Assembly: GCF_000430505.1 (NCBI RefSeq) | Contig: NZ_AUMD01000021.1 | Span: forward strand, 64,001 to 128,000 | DNA from: Eisenibacter elegans DSM 3317 | GTDB taxonomy: Bacteria; Bacteroidota; Bacteroidia; Cytophagales; Microscillaceae | Direction: 5' to 3' | DNA length: 64,000 nt | Part shown: positions 8,250 through 63,804 of the stretch, piece by piece | Layout of the letters: every line of letters starts with the position of its first letter | Position numbering within the stretch: position 1 is the stretch's first letter | Notes under the pieces: generated by a model | Told to the model about the DNA's origin: nothing | What the model saw: the letters and a program-made list of their open reading frames with translations, nothing else | Databases searched by the model: none | Made by a program: the position numbers and the translations under genes

Positions 8250-8303
8250 ATCTCTGAAAATCAGTGATATTTTACTTGGAAAGTAGATGCGCTCAAAACC
8301 ATT

Positions 8304-8358
8304 GAGCCTCAAGAAAATCAAATCCAGCAAACCCGCCAATCAGGTAAATCTTGGGATA
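8304..8358 (+). repeat. Family-A intergenic repeat, partial copy (second half).
   Basis: The sequence gagcctcaagaaaatcaaatc...aatcaggtaaatcttgggatat matches the consensus tccttgagaatcaagaaaatcaaatctt.tgaatcttggtataa. Confidence 0.5.
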
Positions 8359-8542
8359 TCATACTTTTTTTGACCGCTCGCTCAAAAAGTACAGCCCAAG
8401 GGTTTTGAATGACCTTATTTTTGCATAAATTCGCTGGTAGTTTAAGTTTCGTTTTGCTTGTTGGCGCTAAAACCGCATAACGTTTTGGCAATCAATACTT
8501 AACACACATCAGTACTTAGTGTAAATCTAAACTCTCAAGTAT

Positions 8543-12004: not shown

Positions 12005-12008
12005 TAGG

Positions 12009-12106
12009 CCCAATCAAAACTGGTTTGGGAAATGTATTTGAAAATCCTTGAGACCCAAGAAAATTAACCCTTACAAACCCTCAAATCAAGTGAATCTTGG
12101 TATAAA
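12009..12106 (+). repeat. Family-A intergenic repeat, full copy.
   Basis: The sequence is cccaatcaaaactggtttgggaaatgtatttgaaaatccttgagacccaagaaaatt...caaatcaagtgaatcttggtataaaa. It begins 4 bp after the bpt stop. Confidence 0.7.
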
Positions 12107-12189: not shown

Positions 12190-12266
12190 GGACCCATAGC
12201 TCAGTCGGTTAGAGCATCTGACTCATAATCAGAGGGTCGCTGGTTCGAGCCCAGCTGGGTCCACCA
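12190..12266 (+). tRNA. tRNA with a CAT anticodon, either Met elongator-type or Ile2 (lysidine).
   Basis: A cloverleaf can be drawn on ggacccatagctcagtcggttagagcatctgactCATaatcagagggtcgctggttcgagcccagctgggtccacca. The G1-C72 pair argues against an initiator tRNA. The anticodon stem-loop resembles tRNA-Ile(CAU). Confidence 0.85.
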
Positions 12267-14544: not shown

Positions 14545-14657
14545 ATTGGCTCATTTATATCAAGACGCACGAGATTTAAGGATGTACAGGGTTTGATTTT
14601 CTTGATTATCAAGGATTTTCAGCACACATATTTCCCAAACCAATTGTGGTTGAGTAT
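14545..14657 (-). repeat. Family-A intergenic repeat, full copy in reverse orientation.
   Basis: The sequence is ttatatcaagacgcacgagattt...gattttcttgattatcaaggattttc...atttcccaaaccaattgtggttgagtata. It starts 15 bp after the trpG stop. Confidence 0.7.
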
Positions 14658-14685
14658 AAAAAAACCCACGGGTGAAGCCGTGGGT
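14658..14685 (-). terminator. Putative terminator for the minus-strand genes.
   Basis: The hairpin is cccacgg gtgaagc ccgtggg preceded by A7 on the plus strand, which gives a T7 tail on the minus strand. Confidence 0.5.
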
Positions 14686-14761
14686 TAAAAAATAAGATTT
14701 CTTACTATCCTGAAGCCAGCGTTATTTCATAAACTGGTGTCGGCTTAGGGTTATTGATGGT

Positions 14762-21735: not shown

Positions 21736-21839
21736 TTACACCAAGATTTACAAGATTTGACAATTGACAGGCTTTGATTTTCTTGATTCTCAAGGACTCT
21801 AGGCGCACATATTTCCCAAACCAGTTTTGGTTGGGTATA
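21736..21839 (-). repeat. Family-A intergenic repeat, full copy in reverse orientation.
   Basis: The sequence is ttacaccaagatttacaagatttg...gattttcttgattctcaaggactct...atttcccaaaccagttttggttgggtata. It starts 2 bp after the LRR gene stop. Confidence 0.7.
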
Positions 21840-21929
21840 GTAATGCTCAATTGTTAGCTGTGCTAAGTAGTTGACTATTAATTTCTTGAAAATAAGAATA
21901 AGGGAGGTTGTTTTTTGCATTCTCCCTAA

Positions 21930-26825: not shown

Positions 26826-26919
26826 TTATACCAAATTTAAGGATTCAAAGTATTTTATTCTCTTGATTATCAAGGAGTTTTAGTAATACATTTCCCAAAC
26901 TAATCTGGATTGGCTATAT
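26826..26919 (-). repeat. Family-A intergenic repeat, full copy in reverse orientation.
   Basis: The sequence is ttataccaaatttaaggattcaaag...attctcttgattatcaaggagtttt...catttcccaaactaatctggattggctatat. It starts 10 bp after the stop of the upstream gene. Confidence 0.65.
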
Positions 26920-27108
26920 TCTTTGGAGCATTCAAAAAAAGCCACGCCATTAATCGGCTCCGTAGGGAGCTCACGCTCAACGCCCTAAAGTGCGATAAAC
27001 ATTGCAACCCGAAGGGATGAGGAATACATATATCACTACTTTGCCCTCTCTGGAAATGGGTAAATTATTTATTGAATAGTCTCTTGAGCAAAAACCCTGC
27101 GACCCAAC

Positions 27109-27814: not shown

Positions 27815-27933
27815 ATGAAGCAGGGCTTGTTATACCCAAGGTTTATTTGGCTTGAGGGTTCACTAGTTTTGATTTTCAGACCATATATCTCCCCAGCTGA
27901 TTTTGACCGGATATACCAAACACCTGCCTCTCC

Positions 27934-30608: not shown

Positions 30609-30650
30609 TTCCATTGTAGTAATTAGATTTATGTTTGATAAAAGCTGCTC

Positions 30651-30720
30651 ATACCCAATCAAAAACAGTTTGGGAAGTGTGTGTGCTGGAAATTATTTCG
30701 CATCTAGCAAATCAAAGCTA
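30651..30720 (+). repeat. Family-A intergenic repeat, degenerate copy.
   Basis: The first half, atacccaatcaaaaacagtttgggaagtgt, is clear. The second half has diverged. Confidence 0.45.
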
Positions 30721-30745
30721 GCGCATTTCTACTGCTGACAACAGG

Positions 30746-43459: not shown

Positions 43460-43591
43460 CGCCACTGGACATTGTTGGAAAAGTAGCTCGGAGCTAGAGA
43501 TCCGAGACAAGCCGAGGCCTCATTTTTTTTGGGGATAAGATAAGACTTAGCCCACAGTTTTAACTGTGGGTTTGAAAAATGTCCAGCGGCG
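43460..43591 (+). mobile_element. Family-B MITE-like element, copy 1 (132 bp), with terminal inverted repeats.
   Basis: The left end cgccactggacatt and the right end (reverse complement) cgccgctggacatt match at 13 of 14 positions. Inside are the hairpin ctcgga...tccgag, a gaggcctc palindrome followed by T8, and the palindrome cccacagttttaactgtggg. Confidence 0.6.
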
Positions 43592-45510: not shown

Positions 45511-45628
45511 ATATACAAAAAATATGGTATGCGTGCATACTATATCCTTGATTTGTTAGACTGGCTGTATATCCAAATTGTTTGTGTGTTATGGGGGAGG
45601 TAGTTTGGAAGTAACACCTAGTCAGCAT

Positions 45629-45706
45629 TAGTTTGGGTAATGTACGCTGAAAATCCCTGAAAATCAAATCTATCCAATCCTTTAATGATTTGAATCTTGG
45701 TATTGA
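45629..45706 (+). repeat. Family-A intergenic repeat, partial copy.
   Basis: The sequence is tagtttgggtaatgtacgctgaaaatccctgaaaatcaaatc...gatttgaatcttggtattga. It ends 12 bp before the aat stop. Confidence 0.55.
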
Positions 45707-51425: not shown

Positions 51426-51496
51426 TTATACCAAGATTCACAAGATTTGGAAATTTACAGGAGCTGATTTCCCAAACCAATTGTAGTCGGGTATAT
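51426..51496 (-). repeat. Family-A intergenic repeat, short copy in reverse orientation.
   Basis: The sequence is ttataccaagattcacaagatttgg...gatttcccaaaccaattgtagtcgggtatat. The central palindrome is missing. Confidence 0.6.
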
Positions 51497-51510
51497 TTAT
51501 TGAAAAGCTA

Positions 51511-51613
51511 CACACCACTGGACATTTTCAAATCCCACAGTTAAAACTGTGGGTTAAGTCTCATTGTACCCCAAAATGAAACCTCAGCTTTTCCAAAAAT
51601 GCCCAGTGGTGTG
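51511..51613 (-). mobile_element. Family-B MITE-like element, copy 2 (103 bp), with TIRs and a putative 9-bp target-site duplication.
   Basis: The left end cacaccactggacatt and the right end (reverse complement) cacaccactgggcatt match at 15 of 16 positions. The flanks gaaaagcta (51502-51510) and gaaaggcta (51614-51622) look like a target-site duplication. The interior carries cccacagttaaaactgtggg in the opposite order to copy 1. Confidence 0.6.
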
Positions 51614-52776: not shown

Positions 52777-52855
52777 TAGTGATGCGCCAGCAGTACCCCG
52801 CAGCGAAGCGAGGAGTACAGCGGCGCAGCACGACCCCGAAGGGGGAAGCCCCAAA
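52777..52855 (-). repeat. Family-C conserved intergenic element, copy 1.
   Basis: The sequence cagcagtaccccgcagcgaagcgaggagtacagcggcgcagcacgaccccgaagggggaagccccaaa is about 80% identical to 58365-58436. On the minus strand it forms a C(UUCG)G-type GC hairpin. Confidence 0.5.
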
Positions 52856-56875: not shown

Positions 56876-56960
56876 CACACCACTGGACATTTTTGGAAAA
56901 GTAGCTCGGAGTTCTAGCTCCGAGACAAATTAAGACCTCATTAATCACATAGTTTTGTTT
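56876..56960 (+). mobile_element. Family-B element, partial copy 3 (left TIR plus internal hairpin, no right TIR).
   Basis: The sequence cacaccactggacatttttggaaaagtagctcggagttctagctccgagacaaattaagacctcat aligns to copy 1 at 43460-43525. Confidence 0.5.
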
Positions 56961-56987: not shown

Positions 56988-58325
56988 TCAGGGCTGTTTT
57001 TTAAGGGTTTTGGTAATGATTTTGTCATTTAAGAAGCGGTAGCGCACCTTTCCAATGACTAGCCCCTGTTTGGTTTCGAGTGTGTTGAGGTCATACCAGT
57101 CGTTTTCCATTGTATGGAGCGAGCCCTTGGTGCCGTAGGCAATGGCGATATAGTCGGGTTGGATGCCTTGGTCAGCGTCGCAGAGGATGACATGTACTTG
57201 CTGGTTGTGGGTGCGACACACACGGATCAGCTCGGGCAGGAGCTGTATATCGCGGGCGGTAGACTTGCTGTCAGCAATGAAGATGATATTGGCCGCTTCG
57301 GGGTGTTTGCGGGCGGCATAGAGCAGGGCTTCGAGGTCGTTTTCGGGCAAGTCTCCTCCGCTACCGGCTTTGGCGGCGCGTGCCATTGTCTCCACAATGT
57401 CTTGGCTGCTCATCGAGGGGCTGCGGTGTAGCCCTCCTGTTCGGCCAATGACCTTTTCGGCAGCAGACTTGCTGTCGCCATCATTGAAAAATAGCAGCAT
57501 CCGCACGGATTCTCGCGAGGGCTCGTTTTTCCGAAACCATACCAAGAGCTGTGCGCCATAGTGGTACATACTGGCTGTCCAATCGACGACAATTACATTT
57601 TTGGGCCATTGTTGCCAATTGCGGCCTACAGCCTTGAAGACGGTAGAGTCGGGCGTTACATAATCTTGGGCGACGATTTGGTAGATATTTTGAGGCTGGC
57701 GATAGTCCATATTGGGCGCATCTTCTATGGGTAGTAGGCGCTCGGGGATGGGGATAGGATCGTCATAAGTGGTGGTATTGTTCCCACCCCCTCCGTCGTT
57801 GTCGGGTTGGCGGTCGGGCTGTTGGGTGGTCAGGCCTTGGTCGGTGGGGGTTTGGGTATCGGGTAGGGCGGTGAAAAACACCACGATACCGTGAAACATC
57901 GCCTGCGCATCGGGGTAGGTTTGGGCGTAGGTCTGGGCGATGTAACGCCACGGAATGTTGGTGTCAATCAACTGGGGTAGGTATTTGGCTACTTCGTAAA
58001 TGCGGCTGCGGTTTAGCTCGTCGAAGTTGCGCCCCTTGGGGAAATCAGTATAGACGAGATGTACCGAATCTATTTGTTTGTTTTTGAGGGTTTGTAGGTC
58101 TTCGGCACTGACGATGAGGTGATTGTCGAAGGACATCTGCAGCGCACGATGAGGCGTTTGGGCAAAGGTGTAGCGAGTTGTTTGTTGACGTAAGGCTTGT
58201 TGGGCCAGGGTTTCGGCAACAGGGTTCTTTTGCTGGGCGTGGAGCGGCCACACAAGGAGGCTGAGCCACCACAAAAGGCTAAGGCTGCAGAAAGAGGTAT
58301 GCGTGCGTACACTGCTTAGGGACAT
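56988..58325 (-). CDS. Hypothetical secreted protein with a vWA-like domain.
   Basis: It has the signal peptide MSLSSVRTHTSFCSLSLLWWLSLLVWPLHAQ and a VIVVDWTASM...DGDS region consistent with a von Willebrand A / MIDAS-like fold. The ORF extends to 58505. Confidence 0.4.
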   Translation of the reverse strand: MSLSSVRTHTSFCSLSLLWWLSLLVWPLHAQQKNPVAETLAQQALRQQTTRYTFAQTPHRALQMSFDNHLIVSAEDLQTLKNKQIDSVHLVYTDFPKGRNFDELNRSRIYEVAKYLPQLIDTNIPWRYIAQTYAQTYPDAQAMFHGIVVFFTALPDTQTPTDQGLTTQQPDRQPDNDGGGGNNTTTYDDPIPIPERLLPIEDAPNMDYRQPQNIYQIVAQDYVTPDSTVFKAVGRNWQQWPKNVIVVDWTASMYHYGAQLLVWFRKNEPSRESVRMLLFFNDGDSKSAAEKVIGRTGGLHRSPSMSSQDIVETMARAAKAGSGGDLPENDLEALLYAARKHPEAANIIFIADSKSTARDIQLLPELIRVCRTHNQQVHVILCDADQGIQPDYIAIAYGTKGSLHTMENDWYDLNTLETKQGLVIGKVRYRFLNDKIITKTLKKQP

Positions 58326-58364
58326 CTTAGCGCGAGAGCGCAAAGTATGCGGGTGTAGCCCACG

Positions 58365-58436
58365 AGCAGTACCCCACAGCACAAAGTGCGAGGAGTATGG
58401 CCGTCCAACCCGACCCCGAAGGGGGAAGTCCCAAAA
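58365..58436 (-). repeat. Family-C conserved intergenic element, copy 2.
   Basis: The sequence gagcagtaccccacagcacaaagtgcgaggagtatggccgtccaacccgaccccgaagggggaagtcccaaa lies 40 nt upstream of the vWA-like gene start. Confidence 0.5.
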
Positions 58437-58497
58437 AGAAAATCTGGTGTGTGTCATCGGTTTTTTGCTTTCAGTACTTTGTTGCGGTGCGTGTTTT

Positions 58498-58583
58498 ATA
58501 CCCAATCAAAATTGGTTTGGGAGATATATCTGTTGAAAATCCTTGGGAATCAAGAAAATCAAATCTTATGAATTTTGGTATAA
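58498..58583 (+). repeat. Family-A repeat, full copy overlapping the 3' end of murI.
   Basis: The sequence is atacccaatcaaaattggtttgggagatatat...gaaaatccttgggaatcaagaaaatcaaatcttatgaattttggtataa. The last 8 murI codons plus its stop are encoded inside the element. Confidence 0.7.
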
Positions 58584-59413
58584 CCCAAGGGGTCTAAGTC
58601 TACCGACTGTATGCTAGGAACGTGGCCTAGGGGCAATAATTGCCATTGTTCCAAAAAAAGGGCAAGCCCCTGGGCGCTCCCTGTAGTCAAGAACCGGTAT
58701 TGCGGGAGTGTTGTTGAGGAGGTGGCCAGATTTTGGGTGTGGAGGCATTGTTGCGTTCGCTTGGCGACCGCCCCGGCGGGGTCGATGATTTGTACGGGCT
58801 GAGTGCCGATGATACGCTCCAAGAGAGGCATCAGGAAGGGGTAATGTGTACAGCCCAAAACCAACTGATCGATGCCGGCGGCCAACATCGGCTCGACATA
58901 GCGGCGGAGCAAGGCTTCGGCCTCGGGTGTGTGGAGGTGGCCTTGTTCTACGATTTCGACCAGGCCTTCGCCTACTTGGGTATGGACGGTGATATGCTGA
59001 GCATAAGCTTGCAGGGTTTGGTGGAAGTGCCGCCCTTTCAGCGTGCCGGCGGTGGCCAACACCCCAATATGACCGCTACGGGTTTGGAGGGCAGCAGGCT
59101 TGACCGCCGGCTCCATCCCCACAAACTGTACCTGTGGGTATTGCTGCCGCAAGGCCGTAATGGCCGCCGCCGTAGCCGTGTTGCAAGCTACTACAATGAG
59201 CTTGGCTCCCTGTGAGAGTAGGGTTTCGGTCAGCTGCCGGGAGAGTTGTACAATCTCTTCAGCCGGGCGTGTGCCATAGGGGCAGTGGGCACTATCGGCC
59301 ATATAGATAAAAGACTCTTGGGGCAATAGGGCGGCTAAATGTCGCCAAACCGACAGCCCGCCCAACCCTGAATCAAACACCCCAATGGGGCCTTGTGAAT
59401 GAAGCATCTCCAT
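58559..59413 (-). CDS. murI: Glutamate racemase.
   Basis: It has VFDSGLGGLSV and IVVACNTA and is 284 aa. Confidence 0.9.
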   Translation of the reverse strand: MEMLHSQGPIGVFDSGLGGLSVWRHLAALLPQESFIYMADSAHCPYGTRPAEEIVQLSRQLTETLLSQGAKLIVVACNTATAAAITALRQQYPQVQFVGMEPAVKPAALQTRSGHIGVLATAGTLKGRHFHQTLQAYAQHITVHTQVGEGLVEIVEQGHLHTPEAEALLRRYVEPMLAAGIDQLVLGCTHYPFLMPLLERIIGTQPVQIIDPAGAVAKRTQQCLHTQNLATSSTTLPQYRFLTTGSAQGLALFLEQWQLLPLGHVPSIQSVDLDPLGYTKIHKI

Positions 59414-62520: not shown

Positions 62521-63543
62521 ATGAAAGTCTTTGTGCGGTTTATACTCAGCCTCCTGCTCGTCGGGATGCTGTCTGTTACTACTTTTTATTTTTGGGGAAG
62601 CGCCGGCAAGCTTTCAGAGGCCGAATTGACCCAGACTTATGTGTTGCCCAATGCACAAACACCCACCCAAAGCGACAGTCTGGTATTGGTCTCTTTCAAT
62701 ATTGGCTACCTTGCAGGGATGACCAACAACTTGCCACTTCCTCGTACTCAGGCTTTTGTAGATAGCAATATGCTGCACGTAAAGTCGATATTCAAGCACT
62801 TAAAGCCTGATGTGGTGGGGTATCAGGAGATAGATTATGGCGGTCGGAGGGCTTTTGATAACAACCAATCAGAGGTAATCGCCACACGGCTAGGCTTTGG
62901 CTACCGTGCCGACGCAGTCAATTGGGATAAAAACTATGTACCCTTCCCCTATGCGGTCAATCCGGCCTTGCATTTTGGCAGGGTGCTTTCCGGGCAAAGT
63001 GTACACAGTCGTTACCCGATTTTGTCACACAAGCGCATTGCTTTGCAGAAGGTCAAAAATGCACCCTTTTACTACAATGCCTTCTACCTTGACCGTTTGG
63101 CACAGGTAGTAGAGCTTCAATATGGGCGAGATACGCTGGTGTTGATTAATGTACACCTAGAGGCGTTTGACGGCCCTGCTCGCGAAGCTCAGACGGAAGA
63201 GTTGTTGAACATCTACCGCAGCTATCGCCCAGAGCAGCGTCCGGTGTTGCTCATCGGAGACTTCAATAGCAACGCGCCCACGGAAGCCTATCGACAAAGC
63301 GCTGACTATGAGAGAGTAATAGACCTTATCTTGGCAGAGCCTACATTGGCCTCGGCCTGTGTGCCGGAGCTTTTCAGCCAGCGCGAACAATGCACATACC
63401 CTGCCGATAAGCCGGATGTACACATTGACTATATTTTTTATAACCCAAAATTTTGGGAGCTGCGCCAATACCGGGTATTAAACGAAATGCAAACCGCCTC
63501 CGATCACCTACCCATTATGGCCATACTCAAACGCCTCCGGTAA
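62521..63543 (+). CDS. Endonuclease/exonuclease/phosphatase (EEP) family protein, membrane-anchored.
   Basis: It has an N-terminal TM helix and the EEP motifs VVGYQEID, LIGDFNS and SDHLPIMA. Confidence 0.8.
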   Translation: MKVFVRFILSLLLVGMLSVTTFYFWGSAGKLSEAELTQTYVLPNAQTPTQSDSLVLVSFNIGYLAGMTNNLPLPRTQAFVDSNMLHVKSIFKHLKPDVVGYQEIDYGGRRAFDNNQSEVIATRLGFGYRADAVNWDKNYVPFPYAVNPALHFGRVLSGQSVHSRYPILSHKRIALQKVKNAPFYYNAFYLDRLAQVVELQYGRDTLVLINVHLEAFDGPAREAQTEELLNIYRSYRPEQRPVLLIGDFNSNAPTEAYRQSADYERVIDLILAEPTLASACVPELFSQREQCTYPADKPDVHIDYIFYNPKFWELRQYRVLNEMQTASDHLPIMAILKRLR

Positions 63544-63548
63544 TTTTT

Positions 63549-63634
63549 ATACCTACCCAAAATTGGATTGGGAAATCTACGCATGGAGAATCCTTGATAA
63601 TCAAGGAAATCAAATCTTGTGAATCTTGGTATAA
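63549..63634 (+). repeat. Family-A intergenic repeat, full copy.
   Basis: The sequence is atacctacccaaaattggattgggaaatctacgcatggagaatccttgataatcaaggaaatcaaatcttgtgaatcttggtataa. It starts 6 bp after the EEP gene stop. Confidence 0.7.
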
Positions 63635-63804
63635 TAACCGGCATCGATGTCAAGAGGTATTGGAGAGTATCACAGGGTATTTTACCACACAAGCCGCATA
63701 TACGGGATAAAAGTCTGGGTTTTTTGTAATATTTTTGTATCATGCGAAGTATACCCCACTAGACAGTCATTGCATTGGACACAGCCCCAACCGACGAACA
63801 TTTG

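Follow-up and report, generated by a model that had tools for sequence, protein, structure and literature searches.

A small MITE-like repeat overlaps the 3' end of murI in Eisenibacter elegans and probably supplied its last seven codons and stop codon

Bacterial MITEs are recognized as dispersed repeats below ~300-500 bp that have no transposase, carry terminal inverted repeats (TIRs), are bordered by a target-site duplication and have a cognate autonomous IS. The Correia elements of Neisseria (CREE/NEMIS) are abundant, ~100-150 bp long and located near genes, with which they are often co-transcribed. They have TA at both edges and TIRs of ~26 bp starting with TA; an IHF site, promoter elements and processing by RNase III have also been described, and empty sites have demonstrated that TA is duplicated. 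A different organization is found in the IS200/IS605-derived PATE, which have no TIR and no duplication, but a subterminal hairpin at each end and, on one flank only, a fixed target of 4-5 nt.

Repeats of this size are known to reach into genes. QMITE1 and QMITE2 of Coxiella burnetii reach 1-50 bp into the 3' ends of functional housekeeping genes (ubiB, pntAA, mutT, nagZ, ruvB, recN and others); every functional gene concerned is affected at this end, and EnhC owes a C-terminal extension to a QMITE2 copy (Wachter et al. 2018, PMC5896051). Further cases in which repeats overlap or lengthen the 3' ends of genes are given in PMC3184786, and enterobacterial and pneumococcal repeats, namely the ERIC/IRU type, BOX, RUP and SPRITE, have been found fused to ORF ends (Delihas 2007, 2011; Croucher 2011). 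REPs are G+C-rich palindromes of 20-40 nt with a GTAG/CGTC tag, mobilised by RAYT transposases (see PMC3733652).

Here, we analyzed a 64-kb stretch (hereafter, the window) of the genome of E. elegans DSM 3317, a member of the Microscillaceae in the order Cytophagales of the Bacteroidota, in which a small repeat, family A, was found at the end of murI. A profile made from three copies, and then from eleven, was used with nhmmer and gave 11 copies of 69-103 nt in the window, in both orientations, with E from 6e-28 to 6.5e-11 (Table 1). According to the alignments, the copies share the ends TA-TACC(C)AA...TTGGTA-TA-A, and the flanks past these ends are unrelated. The terminal inverted repeats (5' TATACC(C)AA versus 3' TTGGTATA) agree in 8 of 9 bases and are short for a MITE. 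The terminal 24-mer of the murI copy (CAAATCTTATGAATTTTGGTATAA) recurs with two mismatches at 51426-51449 (minus) and 63611-63634 (plus), while shuffled sequence yielded a match in none of 100 shuffles. Pairwise divergence among the copies is ~20-40%, with 81% identity between the 63547 copy and the murI copy. Full-length copies have ~103 nt; this long form (21736-21842 and 14555-14661) is one 17-nt internal sub-repeat (AAATCnnGTnAATCnT) apart from the short form of 86-88 nt, to which the murI and 63547 copies belong. Other copies are truncated or internally deleted. Family A has no coding capacity, with stops in most frames, and contains two short hairpins.

Table 1. Coordinates in the window of murI, of the family-A copy at its end and of the other family-A copies.
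Feature	Position	Strand	Basis
murI ORF, present form	58559..59413	-	PF01177, identical to E. elegans protein
Native gene-derived part of murI, through first two bases of Gly276	58584..59413	-	MurI-tail homology to ~two residues before junction; family similarity ends at 58583
Element-derived coding end: Gly276 third base, Y-T-K-I-H-K-I codons, TGA	58559..58583	-	Overlap with family-A copy
Family-A murI copy, short 86-88-nt form, 3' end (GGTATAA) toward murI	58496..58583	+	nhmmer E = 4e-20, alignments
TA at 5' edge of murI copy, candidate target-site duplication copy 1	58497..58498	.	TA at both ends in 8/9 copies
TA at 3' edge of murI copy, candidate duplication copy 2, within Tyr codon TAT	58581..58582	.	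With A58583 would restore TAA on excision
Hairpin 1 (CCCAATCA-AAAT-TGG-T-TTGGG), best-conserved part of family	58501..58521	.	87.5% of cells paired; covariation not above shuffles
Hairpin 2 (CTTGG-GAA-TCAAG)	58542..58554	.	In mRNA sense, begins 4 nt past new murI stop
Family-A copy, 4 nt past stop of plus-strand Metallophos gene	8254..8361	+	
Family-A copy, 0 nt past TAA of plus-strand ATE_C gene	12005..12106	+	
Family-A copy, long form, 24 nt past stop of plus-strand GATase gene	14555..14661	-	
Family-A copy, long form, 1 nt past TAA of a plus-strand gene	21736..21842	-	
Family-A copy, 10 nt past TAA of plus-strand PQQ_2 gene	26826..26921	-	
Family-A copy, 43 nt past pseudouridine synthase stop, beyond hairpin	27827..27918	-	
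Family-A copy, 3'-truncated, 13 nt past stop of minus-strand hydrolase gene	30647..30732	+	
Family-A copy, 12 nt past stop of minus-strand Leu/Phe-tRNA protein transferase gene	45614..45705	+	
Family-A copy, internal deletion, mid-intergenic, 121 and 171 nt from the two stops	51426..51498	-	
Family-A copy, short form, 3 nt past TAA of plus-strand Exo_endo_phos gene	63547..63634	+	

With its small size and lack of a gene, dispersed copies with unrelated flanks and inverted ends, family A has the general build of a MITE; across ~40 kb of 99.7%-identical JGI and Logan contigs, no site occurred in both a filled and an empty version, element-sized indels were absent and every copy was present. The TA-edged inverted ends resemble those of Correia elements, whereas sequence similarity is absent and long TIRs, an IHF site, promoter elements, RNase III processing and an empty-site TA duplication are known from the Correia elements only. 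Compared with PATE, there is one subterminal hairpin, 4 nt from the 5' end, and an asymmetric flank (A after the 3' TA), but inverted ends are present and the other end has no clear hairpin. QMITE1 and QMITE2 are likewise small non-coding interspersed repeats with terminal inverted repeats that overlap gene 3' ends; they are unrelated in sequence and belong to a gammaproteobacterial host, defined direct repeats are known for QMITE1 and QMITE2 serves as a hot-spot for IS1111, whereas family A overlaps a gene in one of its 11 copies and has no known sRNA or IS association. The ERIC/IRU, BOX, RUP and SPRITE repeats differ in sequence, size and host phylum. Family A has in common with REP/BIME of E. 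coli and its relatives that they are extragenic, hairpin-bearing repeats concentrated just past stop codons, but it is not REP-like in its size of 69-103 nt, its A+T-rich composition and the lack of a GTAG/CGTC tag at the hairpins, which are weak, and the inverted ends are a further difference. Finally, Rickettsia palindromic elements (RPE) are also repeats that become protein-coding sequence, but these enter the interior of genes in frame and are translated over their whole length, while of the family-A copy at murI only the outer 22 nt are translated and the ORF closes within the element.

No description of family A was found, the one paper found to mention the species being taxonomic, and literature searches for a Bacteroidota or Cytophagales family with these ends found none either. 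Within the loci fetched for comparison, nhmmer matched family A only in those of Eisenibacter, and BLAST against plasmids gave no match. A first pattern scan of metagenomes had no match, and a second one returned four low-G+C contigs that share only a pattern of 23-30 nt and were judged to be chance hits. The E. elegans sequence covered comprises the window and ~10 kb beyond, and the 9.5 kb past the right window edge hold no more copies. Family A is a previously undescribed, species-restricted family, of a kind and with an effect that are already known.

The murI ORF encodes 284 aa and its product is a glutamate racemase with a PF01177 domain, 100% identical to E. elegans MurI; the NCBI entry WP_211231606.1 has the same C-terminus and starts two codons later. 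The catalytic motifs ACNTA and GCTHYP are conserved in an alignment with 22 homologs. The ORF has the C-terminus ...DLDPLGYTKIHKI (its translated end is also given as ...SIQSVDLDPLGYTKIHKI), followed by TGA at 58559-58561. The overlap with the repeat comprises 25 nt, i.e., 22 sense nt and the stop: base 58583, where similarity to the family ends, is the third base of the Gly276 codon, and 58562-58582 encode YTKIHKI. The sequence-only reading of this DNA had proposed that a family-A copy provides the C-terminus and the stop codon of murI, and both the overlap and the match to the family profile confirm this. Its measure of the overlap, the last 8 codons in 23 nt, needs correction to seven full codons plus the glycine third base and the stop, and the repeat, which had been placed from 58498, spans 58496-58583 with TATACC beginning at 58497. 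Two assemblies made independently, one represented by a JGI metagenome contig and the other by a contig from Logan SRR35364711, agree in every base of the junction, and therefore an assembly error is ruled out; in addition, the 284-aa murI is called identically on a contig from Logan SRR896301.

The origin of the tail could be assessed from both sides of the junction. On the gene side, MurI homologs have C-terminal tails that vary in sequence and length, and neither YTKIHKI nor any fragment of the tail is found in any of the 120 best homologs. The most similar homolog tail (P0009, ending LLPPGHQASVHFSTLDL before its stop) aligns to LLPLGHVPSIQSVDLDP and ends two residues before the junction; thus, native sequence reaches within two residues of it. 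The comparison with orthologs that had been proposed as a check on the repeat-derived C-terminus is, with these results, in its favor. On the element side, the overlapped 25 nt match the family-A consensus, and the copies at 63547, 21736, 14555 and 12005, none of which has an adjacent murI, read from the same end as YTKIHKI, YTKIYKI, YIKTHEI and YTKIHLI, each closed by a stop. The peptide and its TGA therefore belong to the family consensus. Insertion at or into the 3' end of murI is the economical reading of this sequence pattern, and we assign a probability of about 0.8 to the murI tail being an element-derived gene end made by insertion.

As to how the junction arose, four excision models were computed, and a fifth one, in which TATACC...GGTATAA is removed with no duplication, was also translated. 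If the element proper is TACC...GGTA and TA was duplicated, its excision leaves ...CCC TTG GGT TAA, with the stop exactly at the junction and a 276-aa protein ending in DLDPLG. The excision models with no duplication give 8-13 other codons or run on into the frame of the next gene. The present MurI has 39 residues after the invariant G245, more than ~96% of 113 homologs (median 27), and 32 once the seven element residues are removed, and the TA-duplication model is the best fit to the homolog tail lengths. It also fits the TA at both edges, which is present in 8 of the 9 copies for which the two ends could be placed, a pattern that is inseparable from the inverted repeat without an empty site. 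Longer direct repeats were not seen around the family-A copies.

We thus envisage that a non-autonomous, MITE-like E. elegans repeat would have entered murI at its very 3' end, upstream of the native stop or at it, so that translation would continue into the element, which then would give the seven residues and end the frame at the consensus TGA. The target would be the TA that forms the first two bases of the gene's own TAA, duplicated by the element, and ...GGT TAA would have become ...GGT TA[T ACC AAA ATT CAT AAG ATT TGA...], a 7-residue extension of a 276-aa protein. That the duplicated TA was indeed the one within the murI stop we put at an even chance. From the tail lengths and the excision products, an extension would be favored over a replacement of the native C-terminus; the insertion that the sequence-only reading had proposed stands, and the replacement that it had attached to it is not favored.

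Such a replacement we consider somewhat unlikely. It supposes an element with its own terminal A/T that caused no TA duplication, removed a native tail of 8-13 residues and put YTKIHKI in its place, perhaps by an IS200/IS605-like single-strand or other asymmetric insertion. The native protein would have ended in ...GNTHRNKVLKAKNR, ...GTRTATKY or ...GYKTRTATKY, and the alternative excision ORFs do all close within 8-13 codons. However, tails of this kind, with 40-45 residues after G245, would exceed those of ~96% of homologs, and the hypothetical peptides are unlike any homolog tail. In 8 of 9 copies the 3' TA is followed by A, but a T precedes the 5' TA in just 3 of 9, and this asymmetry does not match a simple, symmetric TA-duplicating transposase, which leaves room for the models with no duplication, as does the subterminal hairpin 4 nt from one end of the element. 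Nevertheless, a TnpA or RAYT gene was not seen in the window.

Whichever way the extension was made, the change of the tail is probably tolerated rather than selected, because MurI tails vary in length and sequence. The AlphaFold model (23 sequences) has an overall pLDDT of 92.7 and of ~75 for the last 14 residues, which are predicted to form a beta-hairpin of a native strand and an element-coded strand, and this model says little on function. The coding end of the murI copy has two differences from the ends of the 63547 and 51426 copies, and both are synonymous third-position transitions. Selection on the tail was not read from these, since n = 2 and the element termini are the most conserved part anyway. 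Recruitment of the repeat as coding sequence, which had been offered as an alternative to insertion, found no support in terms of a selected function.

The position of murI can be compared with that of the other copies. Eight of the 11 lie at most 13 nt downstream of a stop codon (0, 1, 3, 4, 10, 12 and 13 nt, and the murI copy), and the remaining ones at 24 nt, at 43 nt and mid-intergenic. The share expected that close to a stop is 6.9% under uniform insertion into element-free intergenic DNA (binomial P = 7e-8). Either end of the element may face the gene and the offset to the stop is not fixed, and murI is the extreme case of a family living at gene 3' ends in either orientation. Since the bias is also present in two of the three convergent intergenic regions, which have no promoters to avoid, promoter avoidance cannot explain stop proximity there. 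Target choice may thus play a part besides tolerance. To our knowledge, no Bacteroidota family that inserts preferentially beside stop codons has been described. The proposal that family A homes to the 3' side of stop codons (by the TA of TAA, A/T-rich DNA or hairpins), or is kept there tuning the expression of the upstream gene, we regard as unlikely; if it were true, murI would be a direct strike on the stop codon itself. The placement, in terms of target choice versus 3'-UTR function, is the sole aspect that might repay study.

It is quite improbable, in our view, that family A is a 3'-UTR element kept by stops for mRNA stability, termination or translation-termination efficiency, with the murI overlap itself being selected, as a recruitment for either regulation or coding. 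Although the strong stop-proximal bias, in both orientations and with convergent regions included, would be expected of such an element, both orientations are awkward for a sequence-specific RNA. Hairpin 2 begins just past the new murI stop, but the folds are no more stable than those of shuffled sequence (z -0.4 to -2.3), pair counts over the 11 copies revealed no covariation beyond shuffles, Rfam had no match in the window except a tRNA, and no terminator-like site was found in the murI copy. Moreover, the truncations and internal deletions of the copies and their divergence of 20-40% are what decaying selfish DNA would show. As for precedents, Liang, Rudd and Deutscher are said to have reported in 2015 that REP elements close to stop codons in E. 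coli lower the expression of the upstream gene. MITEs located in 3' UTRs are cited in PMC5896051 as repressive. A structured non-coding RNA family was likewise rejected on the Rfam, covariation and fold results.

The seven other copies located 0-13 nt past intact stops are also what would be expected if the junction arose in two steps, with the element inserted past an intact murI stop that was later lost by a point mutation (e.g., TAA to TTA at the Leu271 or Leu275 codons, or TAG to TTG), followed by readthrough. TTA and TTG codons just upstream of the junction are one change from stops, and P0009 ends at a compatible place. However, this requires two events where one suffices, and the residues up to ...DLDP align with the homolog tail, which makes a stop much further upstream unlikely, so that we hold this course of events to be very improbable. 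That family A instead derives from the murI 3' end, with gene sequence copied around the genome and a native tail, the case that had been named as refuting a repeat-derived C-terminus, is scarcely credible: nothing beyond the overlap itself speaks for it, whereas the tail is missing from all homologs, YTKIHKI or a similar peptide is read from other copies away from murI, only the outermost 25 nt of the 88-nt element overlap the gene and the other 10 copies have no murI-like sequence beyond the element.

Insertion as the origin of the murI tail leads to the mobility of the family, for which the sequence-only reading had concluded that the element is, or was, mobile. The past tense holds, and the present one does not, considering the ~20-40% divergence of the copies and the lack of presence/absence polymorphism among the 99.7%-identical strains over ~40 kb. 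We infer that the family spread by transposition, with TA duplication and a neutral outcome, and its mobility would be old. The protein search for an empty murI site gave only 99%-identical variants, all ending in KIHKI, before a drop to 64% identity, and among genome contigs only distant taxa matched, at no more than 50% identity. The next closest MurI-bearing genomes are 58-64% identical in MurI, non-syntenic and devoid of family A. No transposase or autonomous partner was found among the genes of the window or of the ~10 kb beyond, for which Pfam returned housekeeping functions only. A partner IS would have ends beginning with TATACCCAA; an IS630/Tc1-like one would fit the TA, and IS200/IS605 or RAYT would fit the asymmetric model.

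Supplying a gene end is among the ordinary side-effects of small mobile bacterial repeats that have been described before, and the finding opens no long-standing question. It adds a clean example to those in which a small repeat has changed the C-terminus of a housekeeping protein, probably with neutral effect. For annotation, it means that the E. elegans MurI entry ends in seven residues that come from the repeat and lie outside the enzyme family, and that the other copies mark gene 3' ends and break short-read assemblies. The Logan contigs L081, L083 and L090 end within family-A copies or a third repeat (14621/14633, 56885, 63615), and therefore the repeats are numerous genome-wide.

Several single sites have further features. 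The 12005 copy follows the stop of the ATE_C-domain gene and precedes, by 83 nt, a tRNA gene (12190-12263). The 63547 copy is flanked (63530-63650) by CCGGTAATTTT and ATAACCGG, which are mutual inverted repeats, and its insertion site may be the loop of a small hairpin overlapping the TAA of the upstream gene. Abutting the 5' end of the 14555-14661 copy, in a convergent intergenic region, there is a perfect 9-bp hairpin at 14662-14695 (AACCCACGG / CCGTGGGTT); together with the T run that comes after it on the minus strand, it is likely an intrinsic terminator.

The gene downstream of murI (56988-58505) has its start called in three ways, giving 421 aa, 489 aa or a 505-aa TTG ORF, the last of which would extend into the repeat. 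A signal-peptide-like MSLSSVRTHTSFCSLSLLWW... suggests a start near 58333, and the only Pfam match is a weak one to VWA_4. A second, G+C-rich repeat occurs at 58365-58435 and 52789-52855 (79% identity over 71 nt), with a GACCCCGAAGGGGGAAG(T/C)CCC hairpin and no Rfam match. Each copy separates the stop of a minus-strand gene from the start of the following one, namely murI from the VWA-like gene and a DegT aminotransferase from an Fe-ADH. The third repeat family (CCACTGGACATTKTTGGAAAAGTAGCTCGGAG..., 84% identity) is present at 43462-43524, 56880-56942 and about 51560-51600; it has an internal hairpin of the CTCGGAG/CTCCGAG type and is intergenic, adjoining gene ends.
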